A DNA stretch of 52,523 nt from a virus (IMGVR_UViG_2537561965_000009); one strand, 5' to 3'; positions 1 to 26,552 are shown, counted from the first letter of the stretch. Program-made: numbers and translations. The notes: a model not told the origin generated them from the letters alone.

Positions 1-1131
1 TCAAATGACCAGTTTTTTCCATTCCTTACCGCGTGCGTCGTTGTAAATATCGGTCATTTTTTGATTCGAATGGCCTAGCAAAATTTTGGTATCAACCCCC
101 TGCTCTCTGAACAATCGCTCTGATAAAGATCTCTGCTCATGGAAAGAGGGTGGGGTGCCATTAGCACGCCAGTTGTAATCCACAGAATCCCGGGCTTTTT
201 TAAATGCAACGGTTAATGTTGCTGGCTTAACCATCCCGCCGCGCTTAGCTGTCCCTTTCGCGTGATGGTGGTGCAATAGCCACGGACTAAGAACGCAATC
301 GCGGCAGGATGACACTACATCATCCAGGGTGAGATTTAATTTATCGCAACGCAGAGCCAGAGGGATGGCAATCCGGGTTCCTGTTTTTTGCTGTTCGACA
401 TGAAGATAACCATCCCGGATATCCGAAAATTGCATTTTGCAAATATCTGAAAGGCGCTGGCCTGTCATCAGTGCCAGCAGCATACCGCGCTGTAAAAAGT
501 AACCATCCTTTTCCGCTGCGTTATAAATCATCATCCACTCATCAAAAGTCAGTCGCTGTCTTGATATCCGCACCTGCGGTTTTTTTGCCGATTCTGCAGG
601 GTTAAAGCCTGGCGGGACATCGCCCGTTTGCTGAGCTTCCCGGAAAACATCGATCAGTACTTTCCTGAAAATTTGTCCCATTCTGTTATGTCCTCTGGCC
701 TTGTACTCTTCCAGTACTGATACCACATCTTTTACGGTTATGGCATCTAACGGTCTGGTGCCAAAACGTTCATCAAATACCCTGAGAGGGGCCGCTTTCT
801 GTTTCAGCGTGTTGAGTTTGATCTCGCCGTTTTCATATCTTTCCTGTTGAATTTTTCTGTAATTATTCAGAAAAATGGTAACGGTTGATGAACCGCCGGT
901 ATCACTAATAATTTTCTCCTGCAGACTGAGCATTTGTTCCATTTGCTGCCGGGCAAGACGGCTGTTCGCTTCTGCTGCAATAGTTTCTGCCAGTTTCTGG
1001 TCAATACTGCCGAGACCGTGATTTTTGCCTGTTATGGGATGCCTGTAACGCCAGTAAACTTTGTTATTTCTTTTGTCAAAATACGGAGATAATCCCGGAA
1101 CATCGGTTTTATATTTTCGCGGGCGCGCCAT
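1..1131 (-). CDS. int: phage integrase (tyrosine recombinase)
   Basis: 376-aa ORF with ATG at 1131 and stop at 1-3; leftmost prophage gene; its 5' end is overlapped by a small excisionase-like ORF. Confidence 0.85.
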   Translation of the reverse strand: MARPRKYKTDVPGLSPYFDKRNNKVYWRYRHPITGKNHGLGSIDQKLAETIAAEANSRLARQQMEQMLSLQEKIISDTGGSSTVTIFLNNYRKIQQERYENGEIKLNTLKQKAAPLRVFDERFGTRPLDAITVKDVVSVLEEYKARGHNRMGQIFRKVLIDVFREAQQTGDVPPGFNPAESAKKPQVRISRQRLTFDEWMMIYNAAEKDGYFLQRGMLLALMTGQRLSDICKMQFSDIRDGYLHVEQQKTGTRIAIPLALRCDKLNLTLDDVVSSCRDCVLSPWLLHHHHAKGTAKRGGMVKPATLTVAFKKARDSVDYNWRANGTPPSFHEQRSLSERLFREQGVDTKILLGHSNQKMTDIYNDARGKEWKKLVI

Positions 1132-1357
1132 CTTCCAGTATCCTCTTCAAAGCAGGGTGATCTGTGGCGATCACCTCCGGCTTGTTTACCATTCCGACAA
1201 AGCGAGCTTGCGGATCCACTCGCCAGCGTCTCCCAACTTTTTTGGGGAGAGGAAATATCATTCCGGCTTTAGCGTATTTACTTAACGTACTCGGAGTAGG
1301 GACCGGTTCACTGAATTCCTCTTTTGCCCACTCAGTGAGCAGAATAAGTCTTGCCAT
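1109..1357 (-). CDS. xis: excisionase-like DNA-binding protein
   Basis: 82-aa basic ORF directly upstream of and overlapping int (ATG at 1357); contains a KKVGRRWRV-type motif typical of small Xis/AlpA-like proteins. Confidence 0.7.
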   Translation of the reverse strand: MARLILLTEWAKEEFSEPVPTPSTLSKYAKAGMIFPLPKKVGRRWRVDPQARFVGMVNKPEVIATDHPALKRILEDGAPAKI

Positions 1358-1421
1358 GAGCGTCGTTCGCTAATCATGGTCGCCGCCACTATAGCTGGTG
1401 GGCAACGACCGGGGTTGAACA

Positions 1422-3893
1422 TTAAAAATCAGCCTGATTCGGGATCAGTTTTTGCCAGATAACTGAAACGTATTTTGCCTGGTAACGGGCGTCATCAAGT
1501 GCATTATGGCGCTCACCTTCGAATGGAATAGCCGTTCTGGCATCGAAGTCTATGGCTTTCCCCAGCTCAACGATTGTGCGTACATCGCGATCGTTGTAGT
1601 AACGCCATGGGCAGGGGATCCCCTGCCGTTCGTATGAACGGCGCAAAATCGTGTTGTCGAAGTTGGCTCCATTTCCCCAGACCTGAACAAAAAATTCGCC
1701 GGAGTTTTCGTCGATAAATTCCCGCAATTGCAGCAGTGCATCATCTAACGGGATTTCATCGGTCAGAATGGCAGATTGCGCCTCCCGTGATTGCTTAAGC
1801 CACCATTTAATGGTGCCACGATCAATGACTCCGCCAGCAGTATCCATATCGATGGTCTTACTAAATTCCGGCCCCATATCTCCGGTTTGCGGATCGAAAA
1901 ATATTGCACCTATTGAGATAAGCGGGGCATCGGGATTTTTTCCCATGGTTTCAAGGTTGATCATCATGTGGTGCCACATTCTGCTGGTGGATGTGATAAC
2001 GTGATGACCGTTCATCGCAATTAAGGGATCTGCCGTCTCGCCAGTTTCACTATCGCTGGCGTGATCCTGAGCGCTACCAGCATTCTCCTTGTGTGGATGT
2101 TCAGCGCCTTCCATTTCCTTCGGATCATTTTCCTGAACTTCAACCTGATTCTCTTCATCGAATGTTTCCTGGTATGTTGCGTCGCCCATTACCGCGCCAC
2201 AATCAGGGCAGTTGCCACCACCGCTTTGACCGCAGGCGGTGCAGACTTTTTCCGGTTCCTGTTGCGCTACTGGCTCAGGTTGTTTCGTTTCTGGCTCGTT
2301 TTGTAACGCATTTGGGCTGTTTTGTTCCGCTTTCTGGCCGTTCTGTTCCGTTTCTTGTTGGTTCTGATTCACTGAATCGCGGGTTTCAATCCCCTTCACC
2401 CATTTCGGATCATTCGGGTCGCTAATCCCTGCAACAAATTCACCACGTGATACAGCAAGCAACTTATTGGCGTCAGGCTGGCTGATATTGGCTGCCTGCA
2501 TAATTTTGTTTACTTCGTCAGCGGTAACTTTTACCGGCTCTGGTTGTGCGATCGTGTCAGATGCACCAGTATTTTGTTGTGAACCTGAGTATGTACTGTT
2601 TTTGCGGGCGAAATATTCTTCTTTCGTGATTTCAGTAGCCCCGGCAGCCAGCGCCTTATCCAGACCAGAAAGTTTGTTTGCGCGACCGTATTTTTCGCCA
2701 TCCTTGTCGGTGAAGAGGAAGTAGAACGGCCCTTCACGCTCTACAGATGGTTCGACTTCCACTTTGCATTCGGTTTTTTCGTTGTCCGGAATTGCCGTTT
2801 CCACTGCATCAGTTTCTGGTACTGGCGACGAGAGAGTATCAGTTGCGCTCTGATTTCTTCCTTCATCTTCAAACACGCCCTTTGTAGTCAGGTATTCAGT
2901 AATGTATTTGTTCAGTGCCACAGGGTCTTTGTGAATGTCGATCGGACGTTCACGGACAAGGCCAAAAATAGTCTGGCGGTCGTAGCGAAGGGCATCAGGC
3001 TGTTTGCGCATTGATGCCGAGATACGCTTCCAGTCTTCGCGGTCGTTGTCGATAACTTCATTTTTTGCCCAGCGATGGATGCTGCCGTCAATGTTTCCGG
3101 CATCCACATCACCAGGCCAGAGAGCGTAGGCCAGTTCGTCATCCAGTGTTTTCCATGTCTGCTTGTATTCGCGATGAATGGCAGCAATGACCGGGCTGAT
3201 TTTTCCTGTTGAATTTTCACTGTGCTGTTGATTGGTTCTGGCGCGGGCGAGATCAACAACAGACGTGTATTTTCCGGTTTCCTTGCGTTCACCTTCGCGA
3301 CGTTTTTTCCAGATGCGCATCTCTGCCTGAATTTCGGGCCATTTGGCACCAGGCTTACATTTATGCTTAACCCACCCGATGGCATGCAGCTTAAGCTCCG
3401 GATACATGGCGTTAACTTCTGGCATTTTCATCAACGCTTCAACGATATGTCCGTCGAATGTTGCCATGTCTTCCTGCAACAATTCCTGTGCGCTAATAAC
3501 CATATCAACGGTGATGTTTTCACATGTGTCGAACTTAACCATGACAGCGTTCTGTACTTCAGGGGACAGCTTGTCAAAATTGACGTTCATCGGATCGGAT
3601 TCTGGTTCGACCGGAATAAAGGAAGCGGATTCCTCATCCCAGCGGTTTTCCTGCATATATTCAGCATCCCAGGAATCGAGGGCAGGGCGGGGTATACCGG
3701 GTTTATCCTCGCAGACAAGAAATTTATAAGCGCAGTCCTGAGCAGCCGGATAATGTTCCAGGAATTGCCAGTGAAATTTTGCGCGGGCGCGACGTTCATC
3801 ACCGGCTTCAATGGCAGTGGCTACAGCGACGGCACCTTCTTCCTTTATTGCCTGTTCGTCCGGAATGGCGGCGCAAATAAAGACTTTACTCAT
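1422..3893 (-). CDS. large prophage exonuclease (often annotated exodeoxyribonuclease VIII-like); C-terminal DnaQ-like 3'-5' exonuclease motifs
   Basis: 823-aa ORF, GAGG Shine-Dalgarno before ATG 3893; C-terminal domain has Exo II-like GNGANFDNTIL and Exo III-like HNALDDARYQA motifs; central Cys4 cluster CTACGQSGGGNCPDCG; acidic linker. Confidence 0.6.
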   Translation of the reverse strand: MSKVFICAAIPDEQAIKEEGAVAVATAIEAGDERRARAKFHWQFLEHYPAAQDCAYKFLVCEDKPGIPRPALDSWDAEYMQENRWDEESASFIPVEPESDPMNVNFDKLSPEVQNAVMVKFDTCENITVDMVISAQELLQEDMATFDGHIVEALMKMPEVNAMYPELKLHAIGWVKHKCKPGAKWPEIQAEMRIWKKRREGERKETGKYTSVVDLARARTNQQHSENSTGKISPVIAAIHREYKQTWKTLDDELAYALWPGDVDAGNIDGSIHRWAKNEVIDNDREDWKRISASMRKQPDALRYDRQTIFGLVRERPIDIHKDPVALNKYITEYLTTKGVFEDEGRNQSATDTLSSPVPETDAVETAIPDNEKTECKVEVEPSVEREGPFYFLFTDKDGEKYGRANKLSGLDKALAAGATEITKEEYFARKNSTYSGSQQNTGASDTIAQPEPVKVTADEVNKIMQAANISQPDANKLLAVSRGEFVAGISDPNDPKWVKGIETRDSVNQNQQETEQNGQKAEQNSPNALQNEPETKQPEPVAQQEPEKVCTACGQSGGGNCPDCGAVMGDATYQETFDEENQVEVQENDPKEMEGAEHPHKENAGSAQDHASDSETGETADPLIAMNGHHVITSTSRMWHHMMINLETMGKNPDAPLISIGAIFFDPQTGDMGPEFSKTIDMDTAGGVIDRGTIKWWLKQSREAQSAILTDEIPLDDALLQLREFIDENSGEFFVQVWGNGANFDNTILRRSYERQGIPCPWRYYNDRDVRTIVELGKAIDFDARTAIPFEGERHNALDDARYQAKYVSVIWQKLIPNQADF

Positions 3894-3988
3894 TTTGTTT
3901 TAACCTCATTACAGATTTCAGGGTGAACGAATCCCTGCCATTGCTGGCATTTTTAATCCGTTGGTATGGCGTTAATATGGCTGGCGGG

Positions 3989-4177
3989 TTATCCAGCCGG
4001 TATTTCGTTATTCAGGTTCAGCGATACTTTTTTTAACGGGAGGCATTCACCGGGGATTTTTTGTTCGTCCCTTACCTGAATGCAGGATGACTTACTGTCA
4101 TAAATTCCGGTAATCACATTTTGTGGCTCACCCGTTATAAGAAAAACGGTCATCACCAGTGCAAATGCTGAAGTCAC
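3989..4177 (-). CDS. ydfD: small YdfD-like prophage protein
   Basis: 62-aa ORF (GTG start overlapping dicB stop as GTGA); hydrophobic N-terminus; same position and size as ydfD downstream of dicB in Qin-type prophages. Confidence 0.5.
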   Translation of the reverse strand: MTSAFALVMTVFLITGEPQNVITGIYDSKSSCIQVRDEQKIPGECLPLKKVSLNLNNEIPAG

Positions 4178-4362
4178 TGCTGTTCTCCGATAATACCAAG
4201 TTCAAGAAGGGCAATTCTGGAAAGTATGGAATTATCATTGAGAAGATAAGGTTCATATTTTCTCATCTTAATGGCATCTTCCGTAAACTCCCGGTTACTG
4301 AGCAGAACACCAATATCAAAACAACCTTCAGACGTATTAACGTTTGGTAATAACGTTTCCAT
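4174..4362 (-). CDS. dicB: cell-division inhibitor DicB-like protein
   Basis: 62-aa product METLLPNVNTSEGCFDIGV... recognised as DicB-like from memory; GAGG SD before ATG 4362; lies downstream of the DicF sRNA sequence. Confidence 0.65.
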   Translation of the reverse strand: METLLPNVNTSEGCFDIGVLLSNREFTEDAIKMRKYEPYLLNDNSILSRIALLELGIIGEQQ

Positions 4363-4521
4363 TATCGCGTCCTCAACAATGAATTTTGTGATGCGGTGCC
4401 TGGTGCCTCCAGGTGACGTTAACCAGTTAACAATTAACGCCGGATACAGAGAATCCACCCATAACACTGTTTTTGGTTTTAACTGTTCCGCGTGCGCTCA
4501 GCCGCATTCACCACATCACAA

Positions 4522-4579
4522 AATTCACTTTAAAAAGGGCGGCAGAGCAGTCACGGAGTAAAACTGATACCGCCAAACG
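4522..4579 (-). ncRNA. dicF: DicF small regulatory RNA
   Basis: Minus-strand sequence UUUCUGGUGACGUUUGGCGGUAUCAGUUUUACUCCGUGACUGCUCUGCCGCCC followed by a U-run matches the DicF sRNA as I recall it; located between ydfC-like and dicB-like genes as in Qin. Confidence 0.6.
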
Positions 4580-4927
4580 TCACCAGAAAATTGATAACAG
4601 AGGGCGTTGCAGCGGAGTTGTCACTTAAGCGTATGGTCAACCTGACAACCCGGTGTCCTCAACGGAGGAAGGAATAACCCCGCCATACTTACCGCCGCGC
4701 CATTTCGCGGAGTGCCACAACCGGAAGCGCACGGTCGAACTAAATTTAACGACACCGTACAGAGAGACCAATTTCGCCGTGCGCTTTCGCTTTATGCCCT
4801 GACTTTTCAGGGACATATCCTTTCAGTAAACTGTCAGTGCCGGATGTTCACCCGTGTCCGGCGCACGCACTCCACCTGACCCGTGGAGAACTCCTTAATT
4901 ACCAACCTTAGCTTCGTTGGTTAGCTA

Positions 4928-5146
4928 TTAACGCGGGTATGTAACCATTCTGGCAATGCTTAATGCCGCTGCTTTTTCCAGCCTGGTGATATCCTGCTCC
5001 AGAGCGGACAGATTTTCAGCCTGCTTAGTCCTGGCTTCATTGGCCCATTTCAGATCCTGCGCTGCATTAATTTTCTGGCGCATCCACTCATAAAGTTCAT
5101 CATCGGTATAGTCTGGCGCGATGATGACGGGTTCTCGTTTCTGCAT
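4928..5146 (-). CDS. ydfC: YdfC-like small prophage protein
   Basis: 72-aa ORF, same size and operon position as ydfC in the Qin dicB operon. Confidence 0.5.
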   Translation of the reverse strand: MQKREPVIIAPDYTDDELYEWMRQKINAAQDLKWANEARTKQAENLSALEQDITRLEKAAALSIARMVTYPR

Positions 5147-5175
5147 ACTGATTCCTCGCGGTGCTGCTTCGCTTA

Positions 5176-5304
5176 TCAGCCGTTAGATTTTGCCGAGCTG
5201 GAAAGCGCCTGTTTAAACTCACTGAAGCTGAGAGCTTCTTCGCCTTCGGCAAGGCCTTCGAAGTATTCTTCGTAAGCCTTTTCCATGATTGTGTCGAAAT
5301 CCAT
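5176..5304 (-). CDS. ydfB: YdfB-like small acidic protein
   Basis: 42-aa ORF MDFDTIMEKAYEEYFEGLAEGEEALSFSEFKQALSSSAKSNG found by manual translation (below the 60-aa cutoff of the ORF track); size and position match ydfB. Confidence 0.45.
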   Translation of the reverse strand: MDFDTIMEKAYEEYFEGLAEGEEALSFSEFKQALSSSAKSNG

Positions 5305-5305
5305 A

Positions 5306-5461
5306 TCACTCACCTGAGTTTCTTTCCAGCCAGCGACGGGCACCATTTTCGGTTTTAAACGTTTTGCTTTTGGTATACGTCATTGCGGTGAACGTGCCGT
5401 CCTGGTTGGGGAACACGCCACATACCAGAGATTCGCTGTTGCCAAGATCGATAGTATCCAT
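5306..5461 (-). CDS. ydfA: YdfA-like (DUF1391-type) small protein
   Basis: 51-aa ORF MDTIDLGNSESLVCGVFPNQDGTFTAMTYTKSKTF... with GAGG SD; first gene of the leftward early operon. Confidence 0.5.
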   Translation of the reverse strand: MDTIDLGNSESLVCGVFPNQDGTFTAMTYTKSKTFKTENGARRWLERNSGE

Positions 5462-5627
5462 GCTGACCTCATTTCCCCTTAACGCCGGGGGAGCGGAACA
5501 AAAACCTGCTGCATAGTTATTAAAGTTGAACCCTGCCGTCATGTTCTTACGCCTCGGGCTGGCTACTTAACCCCTGACCACTGCCTGGTAACTCGAGGTA
5601 TTGCCCTGTATTGTGTGGGACGGGATG

Positions 5628-5635
5628 GGTTGGTA
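5628..5635. repeat. target-site duplication GGTTGGTA (left copy)
   Basis: 8-bp direct repeat identical to 8335-8342, immediately flanking the IS66-family element. Confidence 0.8.
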
Positions 5636-5688
5636 GTAACCGGCTCATTTAAACCGTCTGGTCTGTTTCCTCCGGCTCTACAAAAATA

Positions 5689-6366
5689 ATGTCCATCATT
5701 TTTAATGGACACTATCGTATGAAACACCGGACCTGGATCACTGAAGCTTTACGTCTTCACTTTGAAGAACATTTACCCCGGGTTGTGGCCGGGCGTCGCC
5801 TGGGTGTACCAAAATCAACAGTTTGTAGTATGTTCGTGCGCTTTCGGAGAGCTGGCCTTTCGTGGCCTTTGCCCGCAGGCATGTCGGAGCAGGAACTTGA
5901 TGCCTGCCTTTACGGACAATTTTCCACGGTACCAGTCGTACGTCCTGAAAGCACCGTTATATCCGAAGCCCCCGTGGTAAAAAAACGTCCCCGGCGGCCC
6001 AACTTCCCTTATGAGTTTAAAATCGCCTTAGTGGAGCAGTCACTGCAGCCCGGAGCCTGTGTGGCGCAGATCGCCCGGGAAAACGGAATCAACGATAACC
6101 TGCTCTTCAACTGGCGCCATCAATACCGGAAAGGTGGCCTGCTGCCTTCCGGAAAAAATATGCCGGCACTGCTTCCCGTGACGTTAACGCCGGAGCCGGA
6201 TAATAAAATCCCGGCCCCCGCACAGGAACCAGAGCAGATAAATACACCGTCCGACAGTCTGTGTTGTGAGCTGGTTCTGCCGGCCGGAACTCTCAGGCTT
6301 AAAGGTAAACTGACGCCGGCGTTATTACAGACACTTATCCGCGAAATAAAAGGGAGCAGCCACTGA
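5689..6366 (+). CDS. IS66-family accessory protein TnpA (HTH)
   Basis: 225-aa ORF with IS3/IS66 orfA-like HTH segment FKIALVEQSLQPGACVAQIARENGINDNLLFNWRHQYRKGG; stop overlaps start of tnpB. Confidence 0.7.
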   Translation: MSIIFNGHYRMKHRTWITEALRLHFEEHLPRVVAGRRLGVPKSTVCSMFVRFRRAGLSWPLPAGMSEQELDACLYGQFSTVPVVRPESTVISEAPVVKKRPRRPNFPYEFKIALVEQSLQPGACVAQIARENGINDNLLFNWRHQYRKGGLLPSGKNMPALLPVTLTPEPDNKIPAPAQEPEQINTPSDSLCCELVLPAGTLRLKGKLTPALLQTLIREIKGSSH

Positions 6367-6713
6367 TGATATCTCTCCCTGCAGGTTCGCGTATCTGGCT
6401 GGTTGCAGGTATCACCGATATGCGAAATGGCTTTAACGGCCTGGCATCAAAAGTTCAGAACGTCCTGAAGGATGACCCGTTCTCCGGACACCTGTTCATC
6501 TTCCGCGGACGCCGGGGTGACCAGATAAAAGTGTTGTGGGCTGACAGTGACGGACTGTGCCTCTTCACCAAACGCCTGGAGCGGGGCCGCTTCGTCTGGC
6601 CAGTCACCCGTGACGGCAAGGTGCACCTTACTCCGGCTCAGTTATCCATGCTTCTTGAAGGTATCAACTGGAAGCACCCGAAACGAACGGAACGCGCTGG
6701 AATCCGCATATAA
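6366..6713 (+). CDS. IS66-family TnpB
   Basis: 115-aa ORF MISLPAGSRIWLVAGITDMRNGFNGL... characteristic of IS66 orfB. Confidence 0.8.
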   Translation: MISLPAGSRIWLVAGITDMRNGFNGLASKVQNVLKDDPFSGHLFIFRGRRGDQIKVLWADSDGLCLFTKRLERGRFVWPVTRDGKVHLTPAQLSMLLEGINWKHPKRTERAGIRI

Positions 6714-6732
6714 CCCGTTGTAAAGTGAGGAT

Positions 6733-8304
6733 ATGGACACCTCACTTGCTCATGAGAACGCCCGCCTGCGGGCACTGTTGCAGACGCAACAGGACACCAT
6801 CCGCCAGATGGCCGAATATAACCGCCTGCTCTCACTGCGGGTGGCGGCTTATGCTTCCGAAATCAACCGGCTGAAGGCGCTGGTTGCGAAACTGCAACGT
6901 ATGCAGTTCGGTAAAAGCTCAGAAAAACTTCGTGCAAAAACCGAACGGCAGATACAGGAAGCACAGGAGCGAATCAGCGCACTTCAGGAAGAAATGGCGG
7001 AAACGCTGGGTGAGCAATATGACCCGGTACTGCCATCCGCCCTGCGCCAGTCTTCAGCCCGTAAACCGTTACCGGCCTCACTTCCCCGTGAAACCCGGGT
7101 TATCCGGCCGGAAGAGGAATGCTGTCCTGCCTGTGGTGGTGAACTCAGTTCTCTGGGATGTGATGTGTCAGAGCAACTGGAGCTTATCAGCAGCGCCTTT
7201 AAGGTTATCGAAACACAACGTCCGAAACAGGCCTGTTGCCGGTGCGACCATATCGTGCAGGCACCAGTACCTTCAAAACCCATTGCACGCAGTTATGCCG
7301 GAGCGGGGCTTCTGGCCCATGTTGTCACCGGGAAATATGCAGACCATCTGCCGTTATACCGCCAGTCAGAAATATACCGTCGTCAGGGAGTGGAGCTGAG
7401 CCGTGCCACACTGGGGCGCTGGACAGGTGCTGTTGCTGAACTGCTGGAGCCGCTGTATGACGTCCTGCGCCAGTATGTGCTGATGCCCGGTAAAGTCCAT
7501 GCTGATGATATCCCCGTCCCGGTCCAGGAGCCGGGCAGCGGTAAAACCCGGACAGCCCGGCTGTGGGTCTACGTCCGTGATGACCGTAACGCCGGTTCAC
7601 AGATGCCCCCGGCGGTCTGGTTCGCGTACAGTCCGGACCGGAAAGGTATCCATCCACAAAATCACCTGGCCGGTTACAGCGGTGTGCTTCAGGCCGATGC
7701 TTACGGTGGTTACCGGGCGTTATACGAATCCGGCAGAATAACGGAAGCCGCGTGTATGGCTCATGCCCGGAGAAAAATCCACGATGTGCATGCAAGAGCG
7801 CCCACCTACATCACCACGGAAGCCCTGCAGCGTATCGGTGAACTGTATGCCATCGAGGCAGAGGTCCGGGGCTGTTCAGCAGAACAGCGTCTGGCGGCAA
7901 GAAAAGCCAGAGCCGCGCCACTGATGCAGTCACTGTATGACTGGATACAGCAACAGATGAAAACACTGTCGCGTCACTCAGATACGGCAAAAGCGTTCGC
8001 ATACCTGCTGAAACAGTGGGATGCACTGAACGTGTACTGCAGTAATGGCTGGGTGGAAATCGACAACAACATCGCAGAGAACGCCTTACGGGGAGTGGCC
8101 GTAGGCCGGAAAAACTGGATGTTCGCGGGTTCCGACAGCGGTGGTGAACATGCGGCGGTGTTGTACTCGCTGATCGGCACATGCCGTCTGAACAATGTGG
8201 AGCCAGAAAAGTGGCTGCGTTACGTCATTGAACATATCCAGGACTGGCCGGCAAACCGGGTACGCGATCTGTTGCCCTGGAAAGTTGATCTGAGCTCTCA
8301 GTAA
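6733..8304 (+). CDS. IS66-family transposase TnpC
   Basis: 523-aa ORF with N-terminal coiled-coil and Cys-rich CPACG...CCRC region typical of IS66 transposases. Confidence 0.85.
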
Positions 8305-8334
8305 ATATCAATACGGTTCTGACGAGTCGCTTAC

Positions 8335-8342
8335 GGTTGGTA
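8335..8342. repeat. target-site duplication GGTTGGTA (right copy)
   Basis: Identical to 5628-5635. Confidence 0.8.
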
Positions 8343-8349
8343 TGGGAAA

Positions 8350-8378
8350 ACTATAGGAAATGCCTAATTACTTGTCAA
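8350..8378 (-). promoter_or_regulatory. candidate leftward early promoter (PL-like)
   Basis: On the minus strand TTGACA (8378-8373), 17-bp spacer, TATAGT (8355-8350); overlaps operator-like palindromes; predicted start about 8343, right at the IS66 insertion point. Confidence 0.5.
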
Positions 8379-8395
8379 TAGGCTATGCCTAATAA
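8358..8395. promoter_or_regulatory. operator-like palindromes (OL-like)
   Basis: ATAGGCTATGCCTAAT and TGCCTAAT half-sites; the 22-bp TTGTCAATAGGCTATGCCTAAT is the exact reverse complement of 9016-9037 on the other side of the repressor gene. Confidence 0.55.
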
Positions 8396-8486
8396 TTTGG
8401 GCGCGACCTAATAGGTGATGGTTTGTGGGAGAGGTAGTAGGAGTTAACTAACGGGAACTAGGAATTTCCCGTCGGACCATATAAGT

Positions 8487-13644: not shown

Positions 13645-13645
13645 C

Positions 13646-17719: not shown

Positions 17720-17917
17720 ATGCTAAAACAGCAGGATATGACCGAAACCGCCAGAGTGGTGTTTAATGAATTAAGCGTCACCGAACCGGCGACCGTCGGG
17801 GAAATTGCGCAGAATACTTACCTTTCACGCGAACGCTGCCAGTTAATACTGACTCAGCTTGTTATGGCGGGTCTGGCAGATTATCAGTTCGGTTGTTACA
17901 GACGCCTTCCGCAGTGA
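17720..17917 (+). CDS. small hypothetical protein (possible HTH)
   Basis: 65-aa ORF MLKQQDMTETARVVFNELSVTEPATVGEIAQNTYLSRERCQLILTQLVMAGLADY... upstream of the methyltransferase. Confidence 0.4.
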   Translation: MLKQQDMTETARVVFNELSVTEPATVGEIAQNTYLSRERCQLILTQLVMAGLADYQFGCYRRLPQ

Positions 17918-18067
17918 AGGCTTTTTAATTTGTGGTAATGGGCGGCTGGTGGGTGTTAGCGGCACCTGCCAGCCATCTGCTCATGCGTTGGGGTCACAAG
18001 CAAACCTCAGGCCCATCTGCTTTGCGCAAAAGCGGTATGAGCCTATCAGAGAAGTGCTTATTGATCT

Positions 18068-19117: not shown

Positions 19118-19166
19118 AACGGATGAGATTGCAGAATTAATTACGCACCATTATTATTCTGCTCCC

Positions 19167-19242
19167 GGCCCTTTAGCTCAGTGGTGAGAGCGAGCGACTC
19201 ATAATCGCCAGGTCGCTGGTTCAAATCCAGCAAGGGCCACCA
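19167..19242 (+). tRNA. ileZ: tRNA with CAU anticodon, ileX-like (tRNA-Ile2)
   Basis: 76-nt cloverleaf GGCCCTT...AAGGGCCACCA with anticodon loop CUCAUAA; closely resembles E. coli ileX as recalled; same position as ileZ in Stx-type phages. Confidence 0.8.
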
Positions 19243-19249
19243 TCACATA

Positions 19250-19326
19250 CCGCCATTAGCTCATCAGGAAAGAGCGCCAGCCTTCGAAGCTGGTTGCGCG
19301 GGGTTCAAGTCCCCGATGGCGGTCCA
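19250..19326 (+). tRNA. argN: tRNA-Arg (anticodon UCG)
   Basis: 77-nt cloverleaf with acceptor CCGCCAT/ATGGCGG, anticodon loop CUUCGAA, T-arm CGGGGTTCAAGTCCCCG and encoded CCA. Confidence 0.75.
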
Positions 19327-19339
19327 TTATCTGCATCAT

Positions 19340-19416
19340 GCGTTGTTAGCTCAGCCGGACAGAGCAATTGCCTTCTAAGCAATCGGTCACTGGTTCGAAT
19401 CCAGTACAACGCGCCA
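19340..19416 (+). tRNA. argO: tRNA-Arg (anticodon UCU)
   Basis: 77-nt cloverleaf GCGTTGT...ACAACGCGCCA with anticodon loop CUUCUAA. Confidence 0.8.
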
Positions 19417-19707
19417 CACTTATTTTCCCTGGCTCGCTTTTGTGGGCCTTTTTTTTAAATGTCTCACAATTTAGGCGGTTGACTGTTGTCTGGTTTGCGG
19501 GGAGTTTGTTAAAAGAAACTGGCATGGTGAATCCCCCTGTGCGGAGGGGCAATCAGCGAGTAGGTATATGGGATAATCGCGGATTCAGGTGCTGGTACTG
19601 AATTCACCGGGAGGCACCCGGCACCATGCAATGGCACATAGCGCCACTCTCCAGCCCCTCTCCGGAGGGGCTGTTTATATTGATTTTGTCAGATGTGAGT
19701 AAACTGC

Positions 19708-20043
19708 TTATGGACTTTGTTGTTTTAGCCCATAAGGACATATTTGCAGAGTGCAACGGTTATTAAAGCATTCATTCAATACGTTATCTGTATTTGTAGG
19801 GCATTCCTGGCTGTTTTTGATTAAATTCCAGAATGTTTTATTGAATGGTACTACGTTGTAAATGGTTACAGGTAGCACTTTGTTATTGAGCATGATGCCT
19901 GTGTGAGTCAGTGTAAATATACTTTCAGGAGGTAAGAAAGCATCCGATTGATACCAGATTATTAATTTTATTTTACTCCATATGACTGAAAAAGATATTC
20001 CGCATGATGGCTGGATAACTGTATCAATCACAATCCACTTCAT
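19708..20043 (-). CDS. orphan hypothetical protein at the stx-equivalent position
   Basis: 111-aa ORF in a very AT-rich segment between the tRNA genes and the esterase gene, opposite in orientation to the late operon; AAGGA-like SD; no family recognised. Confidence 0.35.
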
Positions 20044-20303
20044 TTAGTTTCCTTGTTTATGCCTTGCTGGTGATGTTCTGAAAAGTATAAATGATATTTT
20101 TGATTGTAAACCATAGAGCAGAATTATTTTTCTGATGTTGTTTATTGTTTATTTAAATGCAGGGTGGTTTATATCTCGTCTTGTAGTTTATCCATGCATA
20201 TCTGCTTGATGATGAGGTTTTTATTTAAGGTATGGTTTTGTGTTTTTTCTGTATTACATGTCAGGTATTTTAAAGAATCATTTTTCAGATGGTGGAAAGA
20301 ACC

Positions 20304-22157
20304 ATGGCATTTAAACACTATGATGTTGTCAGGGCGGCGTCGCCGTCAGATCTTGCGGAAAAGCTGACACATAAACTGAAAGAGGGCTGGCAGCCGTTTG
20401 GTAGTCCGGTGGCCATAACCCCTTATACCCTGATGCAGGCGATTGCAGCAGAAGGTGATGTGGTCGTCAGTGGTGCAACTGAGCCGGAGTGGTACTACGT
20501 CATCGTACTGGCCGGGCAATCCAATGCCATGGCTTACGGTGAAGGGCTTCCGCTTCCGGATTCTTACGATGCGCCCCACCCACGCATTAAGCAACTGGCC
20601 CGTCGCAACACAGTGACTCCCGGTGGTAAAGCATGCGCATTTAACGACATCATTCCGGCAGACCACTGCCTGCATGATGTTCAGGATATGAGCGCACTGA
20701 ATCATCCGAAGGCAGACCTGAGCAAAGGGCAGTACGGCTGTGTCGGCCAGGGCTTACATATTGCCAAAAAACTGCTTCCGTATATCCCGAATAACGCGGG
20801 GATCCTGCTGGTACCATGCTGTCGTGGTGGTTCGGCATTCACCCAGGGCGCGGAGGGGACATTCAGTGCGGACACGGGGGCCAGCCAGGATTCGGCACGC
20901 TGGGGTGTGGGTAAACCGTTATATCAGGACCTGATCGCACGCACCAAAGCGGCATTACAGAAGAACCCGAAAAATGTGTTGCTGGCGGTGTGCTGGATGC
21001 AGGGCGAATTTGACATGAGCGCTGCCACCTACGCACAGCAACCGGACCTGTTCACGGCCATGCTGAAGCAGTTCCGTACTGACCTTTCCGGATTTAACGC
21101 GCAGTGCCATGGCGGCAGTGCTGCAGTTGTACCGTGGATTTGTGGCGACACGACGTATTACTGGAAAAACACATACGGCACACAGTATGACTCCGTCTAC
21201 GGCGCATACAAAAACAGGGAGAGCGACAACGTTTTCTTTGTGCCGTTCATGACCGACGGTAACGGCAACAACACGCCCACCAACTTACCGGCAGAAGACC
21301 CGGATATTGCTGATGCAGGTTATTACGGCGCGCAATCCCGTAGTAATGGTAATTGGGTATCGTCAAACCGCCCGACACATTTCAGTTCATGGGCGCGCAG
21401 GAGCATTATTCCGGATCGTATGGCAACCGCTATTCTGAACGCAGCCGGGCGCACCTCAGCCTTCATCAGTGGTAAGGCACCGGAAATCAAACCCTCGCCC
21501 GGCGTCGACACGCCATCGGGGCCGTCTGAAGATGCATCCGTACGCACAATCTCCCTGTTGCCGACAGCCGGAGAGGCTGCTGCGCAGGGCTGGACCATTA
21601 AGGACGGCGGAATTCAGTTGTCGGGTGGTGTATTTAAGATCACCAAGCAGAGCAATAAAACTTGGTCCCTGATGCATCCGGTGGATGACGCAGTCTCCCT
21701 GCTGACACGGGGTGGCAGACTGAGCTGTAAGTTTCGACTGTCAGGCGCACTGACCAACAACCAGTTCGGTCTGGGAATTTATCTGTATACCGATGTAGCG
21801 TTACCTGACGTCGTGGCGATGACCGGGACTGGTAACCCGTTCCTGATGTCGTTCTTCACCCAGACCACAGACGGCAAACTGAATCTGATGCATCACAGGA
21901 AAGCAGGAAACACAAAGTTGGGCGAGTTCGGGAATTACAGTAACGACTGGCAGACGCTGGAGCTGGTGTTCACCGCCGGCAGTGCCACGGTTACTCCGAA
22001 ACTGAATGGAGTGGCTGGCCCGGCATTCCAGGTCATAAAAGACAGTCTGACACTGGGGCTGAATGCGCTGACGCTGACGGATATTACCAAAAATGCAGCG
22101 TATGGCGTTGAGATAGAAAGTCTGGTGCTGGAGATAAATGCACCAGCATCATCATAA
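20304..22157 (+). CDS. prophage sialate O-acetylesterase (NanS-p-like; DUF1737 N-terminus plus SGNH/SASA esterase domain)
   Basis: 617 aa from ATG 20304 (alternative ATG 20289); N-terminal MAFKHYDVVRAASPSDLAEKL...; esterase motif VLAGQSNAMAYGEG; C-terminal beta-rich probable carbohydrate-binding region; same position as nanS-p downstream of stx in Stx phages. Confidence 0.75.
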   Translation: MAFKHYDVVRAASPSDLAEKLTHKLKEGWQPFGSPVAITPYTLMQAIAAEGDVVVSGATEPEWYYVIVLAGQSNAMAYGEGLPLPDSYDAPHPRIKQLARRNTVTPGGKACAFNDIIPADHCLHDVQDMSALNHPKADLSKGQYGCVGQGLHIAKKLLPYIPNNAGILLVPCCRGGSAFTQGAEGTFSADTGASQDSARWGVGKPLYQDLIARTKAALQKNPKNVLLAVCWMQGEFDMSAATYAQQPDLFTAMLKQFRTDLSGFNAQCHGGSAAVVPWICGDTTYYWKNTYGTQYDSVYGAYKNRESDNVFFVPFMTDGNGNNTPTNLPAEDPDIADAGYYGAQSRSNGNWVSSNRPTHFSSWARRSIIPDRMATAILNAAGRTSAFISGKAPEIKPSPGVDTPSGPSEDASVRTISLLPTAGEAAAQGWTIKDGGIQLSGGVFKITKQSNKTWSLMHPVDDAVSLLTRGGRLSCKFRLSGALTNNQFGLGIYLYTDVALPDVVAMTGTGNPFLMSFFTQTTDGKLNLMHHRKAGNTKLGEFGNYSNDWQTLELVFTAGSATVTPKLNGVAGPAFQVIKDSLTLGLNALTLTDITKNAAYGVEIESLVLEINAPASS

Positions 22158-22307
22158 AAAGTGAGCCAGTCAAATGGAAGGTATCGTTAAACTCACCGGT
22201 AGTGTCAGTGGGTCGTCTGAGATGCCTGCATGAGTTATCAGAGCCATCAGTACTTAACTGGTGGCTTTTTTTATTGTTGTCAGCTTCCGGATAACGGGAG
22301 ACGGGGT

Positions 22308-22523
22308 ATGTACCAGATGGAAAAAATCACAACAGGTGTGTCATACACCACGTCAGCGGTGGGAACGGGCTACTGGTTCCTGCAGTTGCTGGACAGGGTT
22401 TCCCCGTCTCAGTGGGCGGCAATAGGCGTGCTGGGGAGTCTGCTGTTTGGGCTGCTGACATATCTGACTAACCTGTATTTCAAAATCAGAGAGGACCGTC
22501 GTAAGGCTGCACGGGGAGAGTAA
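22308..22523 (+). CDS. S: class II holin (phage 21 S-type pinholin) with dual-start motif
   Basis: 71-aa product [28 protein letters not shown]...[15 protein letters not shown] closely resembles the S21 pinholin as recalled; two in-frame starts at 22308 and 22317. Confidence 0.8.
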
Positions 22524-22527
22524 TTCA

Positions 22528-22872
22528 ATGACTCAAAACTATGAACTGATTGTGAAAGGGATCCGCAATTTTGAGAATAAAGTTACGGTAACTTTAGCGT
22601 TACGGGACAAAAAACGCTTTGACGGTGAAATTTTTGACCTGGACATCTCGCTGGACCGTGTTGAAGGTGCCGCGCTGGAGTTTTATGAGGCAGCAGCCAG
22701 AAGGAGCATCAGACAGGTCTTCCTGGATGTTGCTGCCGGGTTATGTGAAGGGGATGAGCTGTCGCCGGAAAAGCGCCCCATAATTTTAGAGGCGCAGAAT
22801 GTGTGGATAACCTACAAAGGAAAGCTACCGGGAAGAATTACTGGTTCTCTGAAGACTCCGCCGAAATGGTAA
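22528..22872 (+). CDS. hypothetical protein inserted between holin and endolysin
   Basis: 114-aa ORF with ATG start and GGAGAG SD; its 3' end overlaps a convergent ORF. Confidence 0.45.
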   Translation: MTQNYELIVKGIRNFENKVTVTLALRDKKRFDGEIFDLDISLDRVEGAALEFYEAAARRSIRQVFLDVAAGLCEGDELSPEKRPIILEAQNVWITYKGKLPGRITGSLKTPPKW

Positions 22873-23110
22873 TTTCACCAGCATATTTTTCTTCCAGTAA
22901 TACCGCCAGCCACTTGAAAGAATTTTGTTGTTGCTGGGACCATTTGGGGTTGAGTGATTCAAGCTGGAGCGATGCCAGTGTTGGTTGCATTTGTTCCTTG
23001 GGAATTGAGAATGCCAGATATGAAAATGCGACAGTAAGGGCATTTACATCATCCCGAAGCCTGGAAATGCAGTCGAGCAACTCCTGTAGAGAAATGGTGC
23101 TATTGTCCAT
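22838..23110 (-). CDS. hypothetical protein, convergent and overlapping with 22528-22872
   Basis: 90 aa from ATG 23110 with GAGAGG SD; protein-like composition (MDNSTISLQELLDCISRLRDDVNALTVAF...). Confidence 0.4.
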   Translation of the reverse strand: MDNSTISLQELLDCISRLRDDVNALTVAFSYLAFSIPKEQMQPTLASLQLESLNPKWSQQQQNSFKWLAVLLEEKYAGEITISAESSENQ

Positions 23111-23215
23111 AAACAATCCTCTCTATTGTATTTAACTATTCCTTGCCTGATTCAACAGGCCGGGACAGATAAACATATCCAGGGTTCAGAAACCGATAAA
23201 TCCTGATAAATATCC

Positions 23216-23749
23216 ATGAACGCAAAAATCAGATACGGCCTGTCGGCTGCCGTTCTGGCACTGATTGCCGTCGGTGCGCCTGCGCCTGATATTCTCGACC
23301 AGTTTCTGGATGAAAAAGAAGGTAACCACACAACGGCATACCGCGATGGTTCCGGCATCTGGACCATCTGTCGGGGTGCCACGGTGGTGGATGGAAAACC
23401 CGTTTTTCCCGGTATGAAACTGTCGAAGGAAAAATGCGACCAGGTTAACGCCATTGAACGGGATAAGGCGCTGGCATGGGTGGAGCGCAATATTAAAGTG
23501 CCACTGACCGAACCACAGAAAGCGGGTATCGCGTCATTTTGTCCCTATAACATTGGCCCCGGTAAGTGTTTCCCGTCGACGTTTTATAAGCGGCTGAATG
23601 CCGGTGATCGTAAAGGTGCATGCGAGGCGATTCGCTGGTGGATAAAAGATGGTGGGCGCGATTGCCGCATACGTTCAAATAACTGCTATGGACAGGTTAT
23701 TCGTCGTGACCAGGAAAGCGCATTAGCCTGTTGGGGGATAGATCAGTGA
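23216..23749 (+). CDS. R: SAR endolysin (lysozyme, phage 21 R-type)
   Basis: 177-aa ORF; N-terminal signal-anchor-release segment [17 protein letters not shown]; catalytic E-x8-D-x5-T pattern [16 protein letters not shown]; C-terminal region resembles R21. Confidence 0.8.
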
Positions 23750-24204
23750 GCAGAGTCGCCGCGATTATTTATGCTCTGGTTATCTGCATCATCGTCTGCC
23801 TGTCATGGGCTGTTAATCATTACCGTGATAACGCAATCGCCTACAAAGAGCAGCGCGATAACAAGGCCAGTGAACTGGAGAAGGCGAACGCCACCATCGC
23901 TGACATGCGGAAGCGTCAACGTGATGTAGCAGAACTCGACGCAAGATACACAAAGGAGCTTGCTGATGCTAACGCGACTATCGAAAGTCTCCGTGTTGAT
24001 GTTTCTGCTGGGCGTAAGCGCCTGCAAGTCGCCGCCACCTGTGCAAAGTCAACGACCGGAGCCAGCGGCATGGGCGATGGAGAAAGCCCAAGACTTACAG
24101 CAGATGCTGAACTCAATTATTACCGTCTCCGAAGTGGAATCGACAAGATAACCGCGCAGGTTAACTACCTGCAGGAATACATCAGGACGCAATGCCTGAA
24201 ATAA
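23746..24204 (+). CDS. Rz: i-spanin Rz
   Basis: GTG start overlapping the R stop; product [38 protein letters not shown]... is close to lambda Rz. Confidence 0.85.
23966..24151 (+). CDS. Rz1: o-spanin Rz1 (lipoprotein) embedded in the +1 frame of Rz
   Basis: 61-aa ORF with AAAGGAG SD; lipobox LLGVSAC and proline-rich mature part. Confidence 0.75.
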
Positions 24205-24236
24205 TTTTTTTGCAAATCACAAAGTCCATTTAATGA

Positions 24237-24259
24237 GCCTCGCGATGCGGGGCTTTTTT
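24237..24259 (+). terminator. rho-independent terminator after the lysis cassette
   Basis: GCCTCGC-GAT-GCGGGGC hairpin followed by TTTTTT. Confidence 0.6.
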
Positions 24260-24408
24260 GCAATAAATGCGTACCGCAACGCATGTTTTTTTTACACCGA
24301 ACCTGCCCCTTTGGAATGGGCCTTTGAGGATACCAGTTAGTGCTGGCGAGCCTCGGTGGGCTGGTTTCCTGTGCGGCAAAGGTTCATTTCAAATGGTAGG
24401 TAAACGTT

Positions 24409-24930
24409 ATGAATATCGTGCCACTTAATTACAAAGGTGAAATTGTCAGTTTCAACACTGATGGTTGGATCAACGTCACAGGTGTTGCTGAGAGATTTGG
24501 GAAACGCATTGATAACTGGATGCGTTTGGCAGAAACGCTTGAATACGTTCGTGCTTTAGACGAAGCGTTGACCGGGAAAGAATCTCAAATTTTACATCCC
24601 TCACAATCGAGGTATGTAAAAACCAGCAAGGCACGAAAGGACAGGGGTGGTGGTACGTGGCTACATCCAAAACTTTCAGTTGCATTTGCCCGTTGGTGTG
24701 ATGCTCGTTTTGCTGTGTGGTGCGACCTGCACATTGATAGTCTGCTTCGCGGTGAACTGACTGAGCAGCAGAAATATGAGCAAGCATGTCGCATTCGCGA
24801 TGACCGGAAATCAAAAGCCAGCAATGGGGCAAGAGAGATGGCTCGCTGGCGATGGGATAAGCCGGTTATTGAAGCAAATGTTGAGTACTGGCGCGAGCAA
24901 CTGCAGTTGACTCTCGATATCGCGTGCTGA
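24409..24930 (+). CDS. KilA-N domain protein
   Basis: 173-aa ORF; N-terminal region ...GWINVTGVAERFGKRIDNWMRL...GGGTWLHPKLSVAFARWCDARFAVW matches the KilA-N DNA-binding domain pattern. Confidence 0.7.
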   Translation: MNIVPLNYKGEIVSFNTDGWINVTGVAERFGKRIDNWMRLAETLEYVRALDEALTGKESQILHPSQSRYVKTSKARKDRGGGTWLHPKLSVAFARWCDARFAVWCDLHIDSLLRGELTEQQKYEQACRIRDDRKSKASNGAREMARWRWDKPVIEANVEYWREQLQLTLDIAC

Positions 24931-25639
24931 TGGCAAACGCAAAACTGCGTTATCGAAAAAATCAAAGCATTACTAGAACTGAGCAACGGCTATCCATTAC
25001 AAAGCCCATCTACGGGTGGGCTTGATAATGAAACCGTGATTTACATCCCCACAATCCGGGTATGTAAAAGATAGTTCAGGCGAGAACGGATTTAACTAAA
25101 TCTGTGCGCCACCAGTTAACGGCAGTACCACGAAACAACCCAAGCCAGTAAGTGGGGAAATAACACCGGCAGCCACTGAAAGATGAACCTCCTGCCTTAT
25201 GGCAAAAAGGATTCTTTGTGGTGGCGGACTGATGGAAAGACATCCTAATTTCAGCCAAACATTGAAGGAGTTGTTATGTCAGCAGAAGGTTTCAATAACC
25301 CATCAAAATTCCGGGATGAGTGGGATAGCAGCGTAAAGAGTAAGTGATGCCATCACAAAAGCCATTCCCTACAGAGTGGCTTTGATAATGGCTTATACCC
25401 TACACGGGATAACTTAACTGATATCCCTTTTAAAGGATAAAGGTATTCAAGCCTGACACATCATGCGCTGTATCGTCGCCGTATTCCCGTATTAACAGAG
25501 ACCGTAGCCCGACGGGGAACTCCTTCTGCGCGAGTGTGCGGGAATAATCAAAAACGATGCACACCGGGGTTACCGGGTACACATATTTCATCATGCCAGC
25601 GAGTCCGGTTCTGGCACGGAAGAAACCGGACGTTATGAT

Positions 25640-26050
25640 TTAGTGCGGAAATATTTGTGTAGTGTTCTGAATGTTCTCAGTAAAGAGTAATGAATTATCA
25701 AAGGTATAGTAATACCTTTTGTTTTCGTGGATATTTGTAATCCATCTGAAAACCCCTGCTGTAGCAAGATTTTTCCTGTATTCGTAAAATGATAACTCTC
25801 CTGATTTGAATCCTTTTAATGTGGCTTCTATAAGGCATTTATTTTTTGAAAATCTTACATTTACAACCTTACCCTGTCCTTTTATTAAAACCGTATTATC
25901 GTTTTCAAGAACAAGATGAATATTCTCTGTGGCTAAATAGTAAATGTAATGTGAGACATTGTGACGTTTTAGTTCAGAATAAAACCAGTGATAGTTTAAA
26001 TTATTTCGCACTTTATCGAATATTTGTTTAAAAATGGCAACCTGAGCCAT
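25640..26050 (-). CDS. AT-rich hypothetical protein (moron candidate)
   Basis: 136 aa from ATG 26050 with GGAAGG SD; low-GC gene unlike its neighbours; no family recognised. Confidence 0.45.
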
Positions 26051-26107
26051 TGTAGTACCTTCCATGTGATATGAAGGTACCTAGTCTGCACGATTATCTA
26101 AATTGCT

Positions 26108-26341
26108 TCAATCTGGTCTGACCTGCTTTCTGAGCAATTCAGTAATGTCACTCTTTTCTTTGTTTGCTTCAGGCGAAACTCTTTTTTCTGAGCACAGTCT
26201 TCGGCGGCAGGCTTCAATGACCCAGGCTGAGAAATTCCCAGACCCTTTTTGATCAAGAGCGATGTTAATTTGTTCAATCATTTGGTTAGGAAAGCGGATG
26301 TTGCGGGTTGTTGTTCTGCGGGTTCTGTTCTTCGTTGACAT
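26108..26341 (-). CDS. small ribbon-helix-helix-like DNA-binding protein
   Basis: 77-aa ORF; segment RFPNQMIEQINIALDQKGSGNFSAWVIEACRRRL resembles RHH (Arc/CopG-like) folds; sits just left of cos. Confidence 0.5.
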   Translation of the reverse strand: MSTKNRTRRTTTRNIRFPNQMIEQINIALDQKGSGNFSAWVIEACRRRLCSEKRVSPEANKEKSDITELLRKQVRPD

Positions 26342-26540
26342 GAGGTTGCCCTGTATTCAGTGTCGCTGATTTGTATTGTCTGAAGTTGTTTTTACGTTAA
26401 GTTGATGCAGATCAATTAATATGATACCTGCGTCATAATTGATTATTTGACGTGGTTTGATGGCGTAGATGCACGTTGTGACATGCAGATGATAATTATT
26501 ATCATTTTGCGGGTCATTTCCGGCGATCCGACAGGTTACG

Positions 26541-26552
26541 GGGCGGCGACCT
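26541..26552 (+). other. cosN, the 12-nt cohesive-end site (lambda type)
   Basis: Exact GGGCGGCGACCT followed by the lambda-like cosB region up to the Nu1 start at 26730. Confidence 0.85.

Follow-up and report, generated by a model that had tools for sequence, protein, structure and literature searches.

DicF and DicB are inhibitors of cell division. In Escherichia coli K-12, the dicBF operon of the Qin prophage has a sole promoter, dicBp, which is the equivalent of the leftward promoter PL; there is no internal promoter, DicF is processed out of the polycistronic dicBF RNA, DicA and DicC act like CI and Cro, and constitutive DicB and DicF are toxic (PMC10448788). In the Rac-type switch, RacR, YdaS and YdaT are the equivalents of cI, cro and cII (PMC5917428), and footprinting has given the RacR operator consensus (T/A)TAGGC-n3-GCCTA(T/A) (PMC9638921). 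Here we analyse a viral sequence of 52,523 nucleotides (nt), IMGVR_UViG_2537561965_000009 (the whole stretch is hereafter called the window), in which a dicBF operon stands beside a RacR-type immunity region and the insertion sequence (IS) ISCro1 lies between the two. The window is very probably a lambdoid prophage of an ompW-integrating, Qin/Rac/mEp460-like lineage, built by ordinary modular exchange, with ISCro1 inserted just past its PL. All of its modules belong to known families, and a mosaic lambdoid prophage struck by an IS is a thoroughly familiar kind of object. The one distinctive feature of this prophage is ISCro1 directly after the promoter expected to drive DicF, DicB and the excision genes.

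The whole window was aligned by local blastn with EC24, the K-12 prophages Qin and Rac, lambda, 933W, PPompW_699, phage 21, vB_EcoS-813R8 and NZ_CP145718. Genes were mapped from the listing of open reading frames (ORFs), from ARAGORN tRNA predictions, from Rfam, Pfam and PADLOC scans, and from the annotation of near-identical relatives; the genome collection searched comprised 5,426 complete E. coli genomes. The window follows the lambda-type order of int/xis, leftward early operon, repressor with divergent promoters, genes at the cro and cII positions, replication, nin/rusA, Q, lysis, cos, head and tail. An earlier note, made from the sequence alone, had described a mosaic of modules from several E. 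coli prophages and had proposed whole-window alignment as the way to find their breakpoints. Run against lambda, Qin, Rac, phage 21 and 933W, that alignment found the modules it had named at or near the places it gave: a Qin-like ydfABC-dicF-dicB-ydfD segment, a Rac-like RacR/YdaS/YdaT immunity cassette, and tRNAs with NanS-p of the Stx-phage kind. Its statement that an IS parts PL from dicF and dicB also held.

Predicted RacR-type promoters and operators flank racR

The immunity region and its control sites are as follows.

8353-8367, 8378-8392 and 8397-8411, minus strand: OL, three predicted RacR-type operators overlapping PL (operator pattern match)
8378 to 8350, minus strand: PL-type promoter, TTGACA-17-TATAGT (11/12 match, the best in 3900-9200)
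8487-8963, minus strand: racR repressor gene (91.8% amino acid (aa) identity to K-12 RacR; named racR by PGAP in EC24)
8992-9006, 9017-9031 and 9043-9057, plus strand: OR, three predicted RacR-type operators (operator pattern match)
9031 to 9060, plus strand: PR-type promoter facing ydaS, TTGACA-18-TAATAT (10/12 match)
9088-9411, plus strand: YdaS-like gene, Cro-type (Pfam YdaS_toxin/P22_Cro; 77.6% aa identity to K-12)
9395-9820, plus strand: YdaT-family gene at the CII position (Pfam YdaT_toxin; 31.9% aa identity to K-12)

Over 8335-9418, which holds racR, ydaS and the start of ydaT, the window is 86.8% identical to Rac in nucleotides. No sigma-70 matches within 3900-9200 score higher than PL and PR. 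The motif TTAGGC-N3-GCCTAA, equal to the footprinted RacR consensus (PMC9638921), occurs just six times in 52.5 kb, in two triplets on either side of racR; 1.6 occurrences would be expected, and none of 100 shuffles reached six. A perfect 23-nt inverted repeat connects OL/PL with OR/PR, and at the homologous places K-12 Rac shares both the PL and PR hexamers and the layout of the operators. The window appears to possess a lambda-style OL/PL, with the IS beginning about 10 nt past the predicted start of the PL transcript.

The region is thus like Rac immunity in having racR divergent from ydaS-ydaT, a RacR with over nine-tenths of its residues in common, and identical hexamers and operator layout on both sides of racR. 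By contrast, its YdaT is only 31.9% identical to that of K-12, its left operon is of the dicBF type where Rac has ydaG-ydaF-sieB-kilR, and its replication genes differ from ydaU/ydaV.

In the K-12 Rac sequence, a near-consensus leftward promoter with RacR-type operators lies downstream of racR, at 11627-11669. PMC11879457 contains nothing on a leftward Rac promoter, and that paper and PMC9638921 treat only the operators between racR and ydaS.

ISCro1 separates PL from the dicBF operon and the excision genes

The leftward arm of the window, from the integrase gene to the IS, carries the following features.

1-1131, minus strand: tyrosine integrase gene (int), lambda Arm-binding type (Pfam Arm-DNA-bind_1 and Phage_integrase; 100% nt identity to the EC24 ompW prophage)
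1109-1357, minus strand: excisionase gene (xis; annotation of the 99.98%-identical EC24 locus)
1422-3893, minus strand: gene for an 823-aa exonuclease with a 3'-5' exonuclease domain (Pfam Rv2179c-like, 1.7e-64)
3989-4177, minus strand: ydfD-like gene (Pfam DUF1482; 46% aa identity to K-12 YdfD)
4174-4362, minus strand: dicB, full length (Pfam DicB, 3.7e-38; 61% aa identity to K-12 DicB)
4537-4588, minus strand: DicF small RNA (Rfam RF00039, 76.7 bits, gathering score 48; identical to K-12 DicF)
4928-5146, minus strand: ydfC (within the 96-100% aa identity to Qin proteins seen for YdfA, YdfB and YdfC)
5176-5304, minus strand: ydfB (same range)
5306-5461, minus strand: ydfA (Pfam DUF1391; same range)
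5462-5635, minus strand: Rac-like, promoter-distal stretch of the PL leader, no longer joined to PL (5474-5635 has 84% nt identity to Rac upstream of ydaG; direct reading)
5636-8334, plus strand: ISCro1, IS66 family, 2,699 bp (100% identical over 2,699 bp to annotated ISCro1 copies)
5689-6366, plus strand: tnpA of ISCro1 (ORF listing)
6366-6713, plus strand: tnpB of ISCro1 (ORF listing)
6733-8304, plus strand: tnpC of ISCro1 (ORF listing)

The IS has the features of its family: the genes tnpA-tnpB-tnpC, terminal inverted repeats, which are imperfect and begin GTAA, and a perfect 8-bp target duplication, GGTTGGTA, at 5628-5635 and 8335-8342 (repeats and duplication by direct reading). It differs from the annotated ISCro1 copies in its insertion site only. 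Because the target duplication is perfect and the IS is 100% identical to those copies, these features indicate a recent insertion. ISCro1 is absent from this site in EC24 and in every complete genome searched, and the exact left IS junction had no matches in public metagenome contigs. Freed of the IS, the leader would run for about 175 nt from the PL start to the ATG of ydfA.

Two further candidates at this site were rejected. A structured leader RNA, riboswitch-like or put-like, was set aside because the fold of 5455-5635 (minus strand) is no better than that of shuffled sequences (z = +1.38), and an outward or hybrid replacement promoter at the left end of the IS because just two 8/12 matches were found there. 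Two terminators were found on the antisense strand of the IS, but terminators over the region as a whole are only as numerous as shuffles predict, and we do not take them as evidence. The ISCro1 target sequence forms part of a 12-mer, GGTTGGTATGGG, found at 8335-8346 and once more within racR at 8724-8735; this may be chance.

Beyond the IS, ydfA-ydfB-ydfC-dicF-dicB-ydfD (3989-5461, minus strand) has the gene order of the Qin operon, and 3127-5499 is colinear with Qin ydfE-ydfA at 89.4% nt identity. As in Qin, the promoter is a PL equivalent beside the immunity region (PMC10448788). Likeness to Qin falls to 59-70% of nucleotides in a patch at 3900-4300, between flanks of at least 92%. This patch spans ydfD and the 3' half of dicB, which is why DicB and YdfD are only 61% and 46% identical to their K-12 counterparts when DicF is identical and YdfA, YdfB and YdfC are nearly so; in DicB, the replacement affects the C-terminal half, the N-terminal half being conserved. 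Unlike the Qin operon, that of the window stands next to a RacR-type repressor in place of DicA and has an IS between promoter and genes. Local alignment found neither dicA nor dicC in the window, and the neighbouring repressor is RacR-type with RacR-type operators, so that the operon does not appear to be under DicA control.

The downstream exonuclease, xis and int genes, which survive as remnants in Qin, are intact in the window. Homology to Qin starts at 3127, inside the exonuclease gene, and the exonuclease has only 28.6% aa identity to Rac RecE; Qin ydfE is a remnant of an exonuclease gene of this type and not of recE.

Predicted effect of the insertion on the early-left operon

After derepression, transcripts from PL would have to run through 2.7 kb that is untranslated and antisense to tnpC-tnpB-tnpA, and Rho-dependent polarity would strongly lower DicF, DicB, the exonuclease, Xis and PL-driven Int. 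We consider such a strong reduction probable because the antisense IS RNA is long and untranslated, because the interval from PL to ydfA encodes no N-like antiterminator (by the ORF listing and by reading of the sequence), and because dicBF has no internal promoter in K-12. With ISCro1 in place, the immunity switch should no longer be coupled to dicBF, xis, int or the exonuclease gene, and the prophage is probably poorly excisable despite its intact immunity region and lambda virion genes.

The left block belongs to an ompW-integrating lineage

The left 22.5 kb of the window is 99-100% identical to, and colinear with, ompW prophages in 4 complete genomes. The closest relative is the ompW prophage of E. 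coli EC24 (NZ_CM169477), with 99.98% identity over 1-5635 and 99.1% over 8335-23754. Its int directly adjoins ompW; the first base of the window falls at the int stop codon. EC24 shares with the window this int, the RacR immunity region, the Q-like gene, the cargo genes, the tRNAs, NanS-p and the holin. It differs in having no ISCro1 and in packaging and head genes that are just 66-69% identical in nucleotides to those of the window.

More distant members have most of this gene order in common. Among the PPompW phages of Shiga toxin-producing E. coli (e.g. LC567826), PPompW_699 shares int-xis-exonuclease-dicB at 96%, but has DicA/DicC immunity, another Q and type III secretion system effector cargo, and has lost the lysis genes. 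A sequenced phage of the lineage, vB_EcoS-813R8, has the same gene order as the window, int-xis-exonuclease-ydfD-dicB-dicF-ydfC...repressor-cro-cII-like-O...hok-ydfU-rusA-Q-tRNA-iraM-S-ydfR-R-Rz, with another immunity type. Of the 5,426 complete genomes, 87 contain the IS-free joint of ydfC-ydfB-ydfA, PL, racR, PR and ydaS with a coverage of at least 80%. The mosaic seen by the earlier note is real; its attribution of the modules to different E. coli prophages was centred on K-12, since intact relatives hold these cassettes together. It is best to regard Qin and Rac as decayed representatives of a single lineage, not as separate sources, and mosaicism is the normal state of this prophage lineage, unsurprising among lambdoid phages.

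The left block meets a lambda-type block at the end of the holin gene

The lysis region and the sequence from there to cos hold the following.

22308-22523, plus strand: class II holin gene, S21 family, 71 aa, dual-start motif MYQM (Pfam PF04971 'Bacteriophage P21 holin S', 8.6e-33)
22500-22759, no strand: crossover interval, in which the ompW-type left block gives way to the att-lambda-type right block (mismatch positions against each relative)
22528-22872, plus strand: ydfR (DUF1327; Pfam)
23216-23749, plus strand: SAR-type endolysin gene, 177 aa (Pfam; PDB matches including R21 3HDE, 4e-16)
23743-24204, plus strand: Rz (Pfam)
23960-24151, plus strand: Rz1, embedded within Rz
24409-24930, plus strand: KilA-N protein gene (Pfam)
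25640-26065, minus strand: DUF1398/ydfO-like gene (Pfam; 92% nt identity to Qin ynfO-ydfO-nohA)
26108-26341, minus strand: ynfO-like gene (annotation of a relative; 92% nt identity to Qin ynfO-ydfO-nohA)
26541-26552, plus strand: lambda cosN, 12-nt cohesive end GGGCGGCGACCT (direct reading)

A lambda-like prophage that lies next to ybhC (att-lambda) in strain S1-CAM-01-C aligns with the window from 22317, with 97.9% identity up to 38063 and 95% up to 44539. The identity of the right block to an att-lambda prophage is 98-100%. The last mismatch to this right-block relative lies at 22499, and the two are identical from 22500; EC24-type identity runs to 22507, with one mismatch at 22508 and dense mismatches from 22760. 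The crossover therefore lies within 22500-22759. Homologous recombination within the conserved end of S would have brought the two blocks together. The right block, extending from the holin gene's 3' end through ydfR to J, appears to derive from a lambda-like phage of the att-lambda-integrating kind. Its stretch 22528-24204 is 100% identical to NZ_CP145718.

The earlier note had the structural half become lambda from cos onward. The kinship with lambda stands (97.35% of nucleotides), but the lambda-type block starts about 4 kb to the left of cos, ydfR-R-Rz-KilA-N-ydfO-ynfO-cos travelling with the structural genes. Its assignment of the lysis genes to an S21/R21 type holds for the holin, which is 78.9% identical in amino acids to S21 (whose start is MKSM) and 98.6% (93% in nucleotides) to 933W S. 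The endolysin is R21-like in type only: its aa identity is 94.4% to Qin RrrQ, 91.5% to 933W R and 32.2% to R21, which is no close kinship with the last. Its hydrophobic, Ala/Gly-rich N-terminus and E-8-D-5-T motif fit a SAR-type enzyme. The cassette is like that of phage 21 in a PF04971 holin with a dual start and in an endolysin that matches the R21 structures 3HDE and 3HDF at about 1e-16. It differs in the length of the endolysin (177 aa against 165 aa), in an Rz that is 57.5% identical, and in having S and R apart, with ydfR and about 340 bp between them.

Alternative explanations

The polarity expected from ISCro1 has to be weighed against the view that the IS is neutral or activating, so that dicF/dicB and xis/int are still expressed by read-through from PL or from an ISCro1 promoter, leaving the prophage inducible or DicB and DicF constitutive. 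This we judge unlikely. Two weak (8/12) outward promoter-like sites on the minus strand near the left end of the IS are in its favour, as are the lack of a significant excess of intrinsic terminators on the IS antisense strand and the intactness of DicF, DicB and all downstream ORFs; the insertion is recent (100% IS identity, perfect duplication), hence decay would not yet be visible in either case. Yet 2.7 kb of untranslated antisense RNA is, by established knowledge, a classic substrate of Rho-dependent polarity, no N-like antiterminator is encoded ahead of ydfA to offset it, and constitutive DicB and DicF are toxic in K-12 (PMC10448788). Our preferred reading, of an ompW-lineage prophage whose dicBF and excision genes ISCro1 cuts off from PL, has several points to its debit: the effect of polarity is something we infer; hairpins on the IS antisense strand are no commoner than in shuffles, and termination would need to be Rho-dependent; the weak promoter-like sites lie within the left end of the IS; int may have a promoter of its own; and the joint at 22500-22759 is present in no complete genome. 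A more far-reaching version can be offered only tentatively. In it, ISCro1 at about +10 of PL would be a one-step domestication lock, cutting the dicBF, exonuclease, xis and int genes off from the RacR switch and leaving immunity, cargo and virion module intact; derepression would lead to replication in place and cell death, or to failed excision, and antisense transcription from PL through the transposase genes would tie IS activity to induction.

The joint itself could be an assembly artefact, arising if one strain held both an ompW and an att-lambda prophage and the assembly crossed over in the stretch of about 250 bp where they are identical. The switch of parental type is indeed abrupt and falls within sequence identical to both, the two parental types occur separately in complete genomes, and none of the 5,426 genomes reaches 80% coverage of 20000-30000. 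We nevertheless hold an artefact to be quite improbable, because lambdoid recombination normally yields such joints, exchange between modules through conserved segments being the textbook mode of evolution of these phages, and because the order S-ydfR-R-Rz across the joint is exactly that of intact relatives. The window is, moreover, one continuous sequence of 52.5 kb, and its right end departs from the att-lambda relative after 46539. Least credible of all is that the window is simply one already described phage, colinear throughout with a known reference. Apart from the IS, its left 23.7 kb is colinear with the EC24 ompW prophage at 99%, and its structural half is 97% lambda; but among phage records coverage of the first 25 kb is 38% at most, the EC24 packaging and head genes diverge as given above, and no genome spans 20000-30000 at the coverage just stated. 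Within the collections searched this refutes it. Neither this particular recombinant nor its IS position was found elsewhere in those collections.

Replication, cargo and Stx-phage-like late genes

Between the immunity region and the holin gene, the left block carries the following.

9828-10805, plus strand: helix-turn-helix replication protein gene (EC24 annotation, Pfam)
10846-11268, plus strand: DUF977 gene (EC24 annotation, Pfam)
12880-13205, plus strand: hok/sok type I toxin-antitoxin (Rfam sok, 117 bits; 98% nt identity to Qin hokD)
13646-14704, plus strand: ydfU (EC24 annotation, Pfam)
14705-15070, plus strand: rusA (EC24 annotation, Pfam)
15067-15624, plus strand: Q-like DUF1133 gene (Pfam; about 20% identity to 933W, 21 and lambda Q)
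15624-16904, plus strand: AbiLi-like AAA ATPase gene (PADLOC AbiLi, 9.6e-26; weak Pfam AAA_15)
16904-17437, plus strand: gene for a 177-aa partner, overlapping the ATPase gene (ORF listing)
18068-19117, plus strand: type-II-like DNA methyltransferase gene, 349 aa (PADLOC MTase_II, 4e-166)
19167-19416, plus strand: three tRNAs, Met(CAU; Ile in the annotation of relatives), Arg(UCG) and Arg(UCU) (ARAGORN, Rfam; 91% nt identity to 933W ileZ-argN-argO)
19493-19682, plus strand: STnc100 small RNA (Rfam, 132 bits)
19708-20043, minus strand: iraM (EC24 annotation)
20289-22157, plus strand: NanS-p sialate O-acetylesterase gene (Pfam DUF1737, SASA and DUF6645; 69% nt and 52.9% aa identity to the 933W homologue)

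The stretch 10743-15052 is 94% identical to phage vB_EcoS-813R8. PADLOC found no match among the replication proteins. The Q-like gene is of the DUF1133 type and not of the 933W, 21 or lambda type. Next to it, the pair at 15624-17437 is a candidate two-gene abortive-infection cargo, in which the 177-aa partner of the ATPase has no PADLOC or Pfam match. The methyltransferase, with no restriction gene beside it, is probably an orphan phage methylase. EC24 is the sole match to this cargo (15624-19117) among the references used.

The late region is like that of 933W in its tRNA trio, in S (98.6% aa identity) and R (91.5%), and in having NanS-p and S downstream of Q, NanS-p at the same position as in 933W. 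It differs in a Q that is only about 20% identical, in a NanS-p at 53% aa identity, in ydfR between S and R, and in a siphovirus, lambda-type virion module where 933W is of the short-tail type. It also lacks stx: local alignment gave no window match to the 933W stx region (933W 21462-22702), and STnc100 and iraM sit in the slot between tRNAs and nanS-p that stx holds in 933W.

Structural genes and right end

26730-45455, plus strand: lambda-type packaging, head and tail genes, nu1 to J (20 proteins, all full length)
51544-52296: AraC-family regulator gene, at the right end of the window

At cos, the lambda right end (window 26179-26540) directly abuts the lambda left end (26541 onward), and cosN and the sequence flanking cos are the same as in lambda. 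From there, 26541-45011 corresponds to lambda 1-18474 at the identity given above, with Nu1 to I 89-100% identical in amino acids and J 88.8%. Identity to lambda ends inside J, at 45011. The window is unlike lambda in the J C-terminus, in lom (46% aa identity) and in its side tail fibres, which are closest to Rac stfR (45936-47676, 93.8% of nucleotides); to the left of cos it is non-lambda in int, immunity, replication, Q, S and R, with the exception of Rz and an orf near bor.

Within the tail-fibre assembly gene, 49811-50009 matches Rfam 'IS009' at 213 bits. Besides the AraC-family regulator, 50050-52523 carries an IS-type integrase-core fragment, and the segment 49400-52523 (tail-fibre assembly, IS fragment, AraC regulator) is matched in 158 genomes, among them a decayed prophage remnant in NCTC11023. 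No ompW attR repeat was seen at the right end of the window, so the right boundary of the prophage lies outside the window or has been rearranged.

Implications

The window is a clean and well-resolved case of modular exchange in lambdoid phages: the crossover is narrowed down to some 250 bp where the holin gene ends. The significance of the window beyond annotation is small. The intact relatives carry a warning that the cryptic K-12 prophages Qin and Rac should not be taken as separate 'types'. The analysis also places, by sequence, a predicted RacR-type OL/PL that is conserved in K-12 Rac. If the tentative lock were real, the cargo left intact under it would comprise the AbiL-like pair, the methyltransferase, NanS-p and IraM. 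The IS in the PL leader makes a natural mutant for the question whether DicF, DicB and the excision functions of this lineage rely on PL alone.

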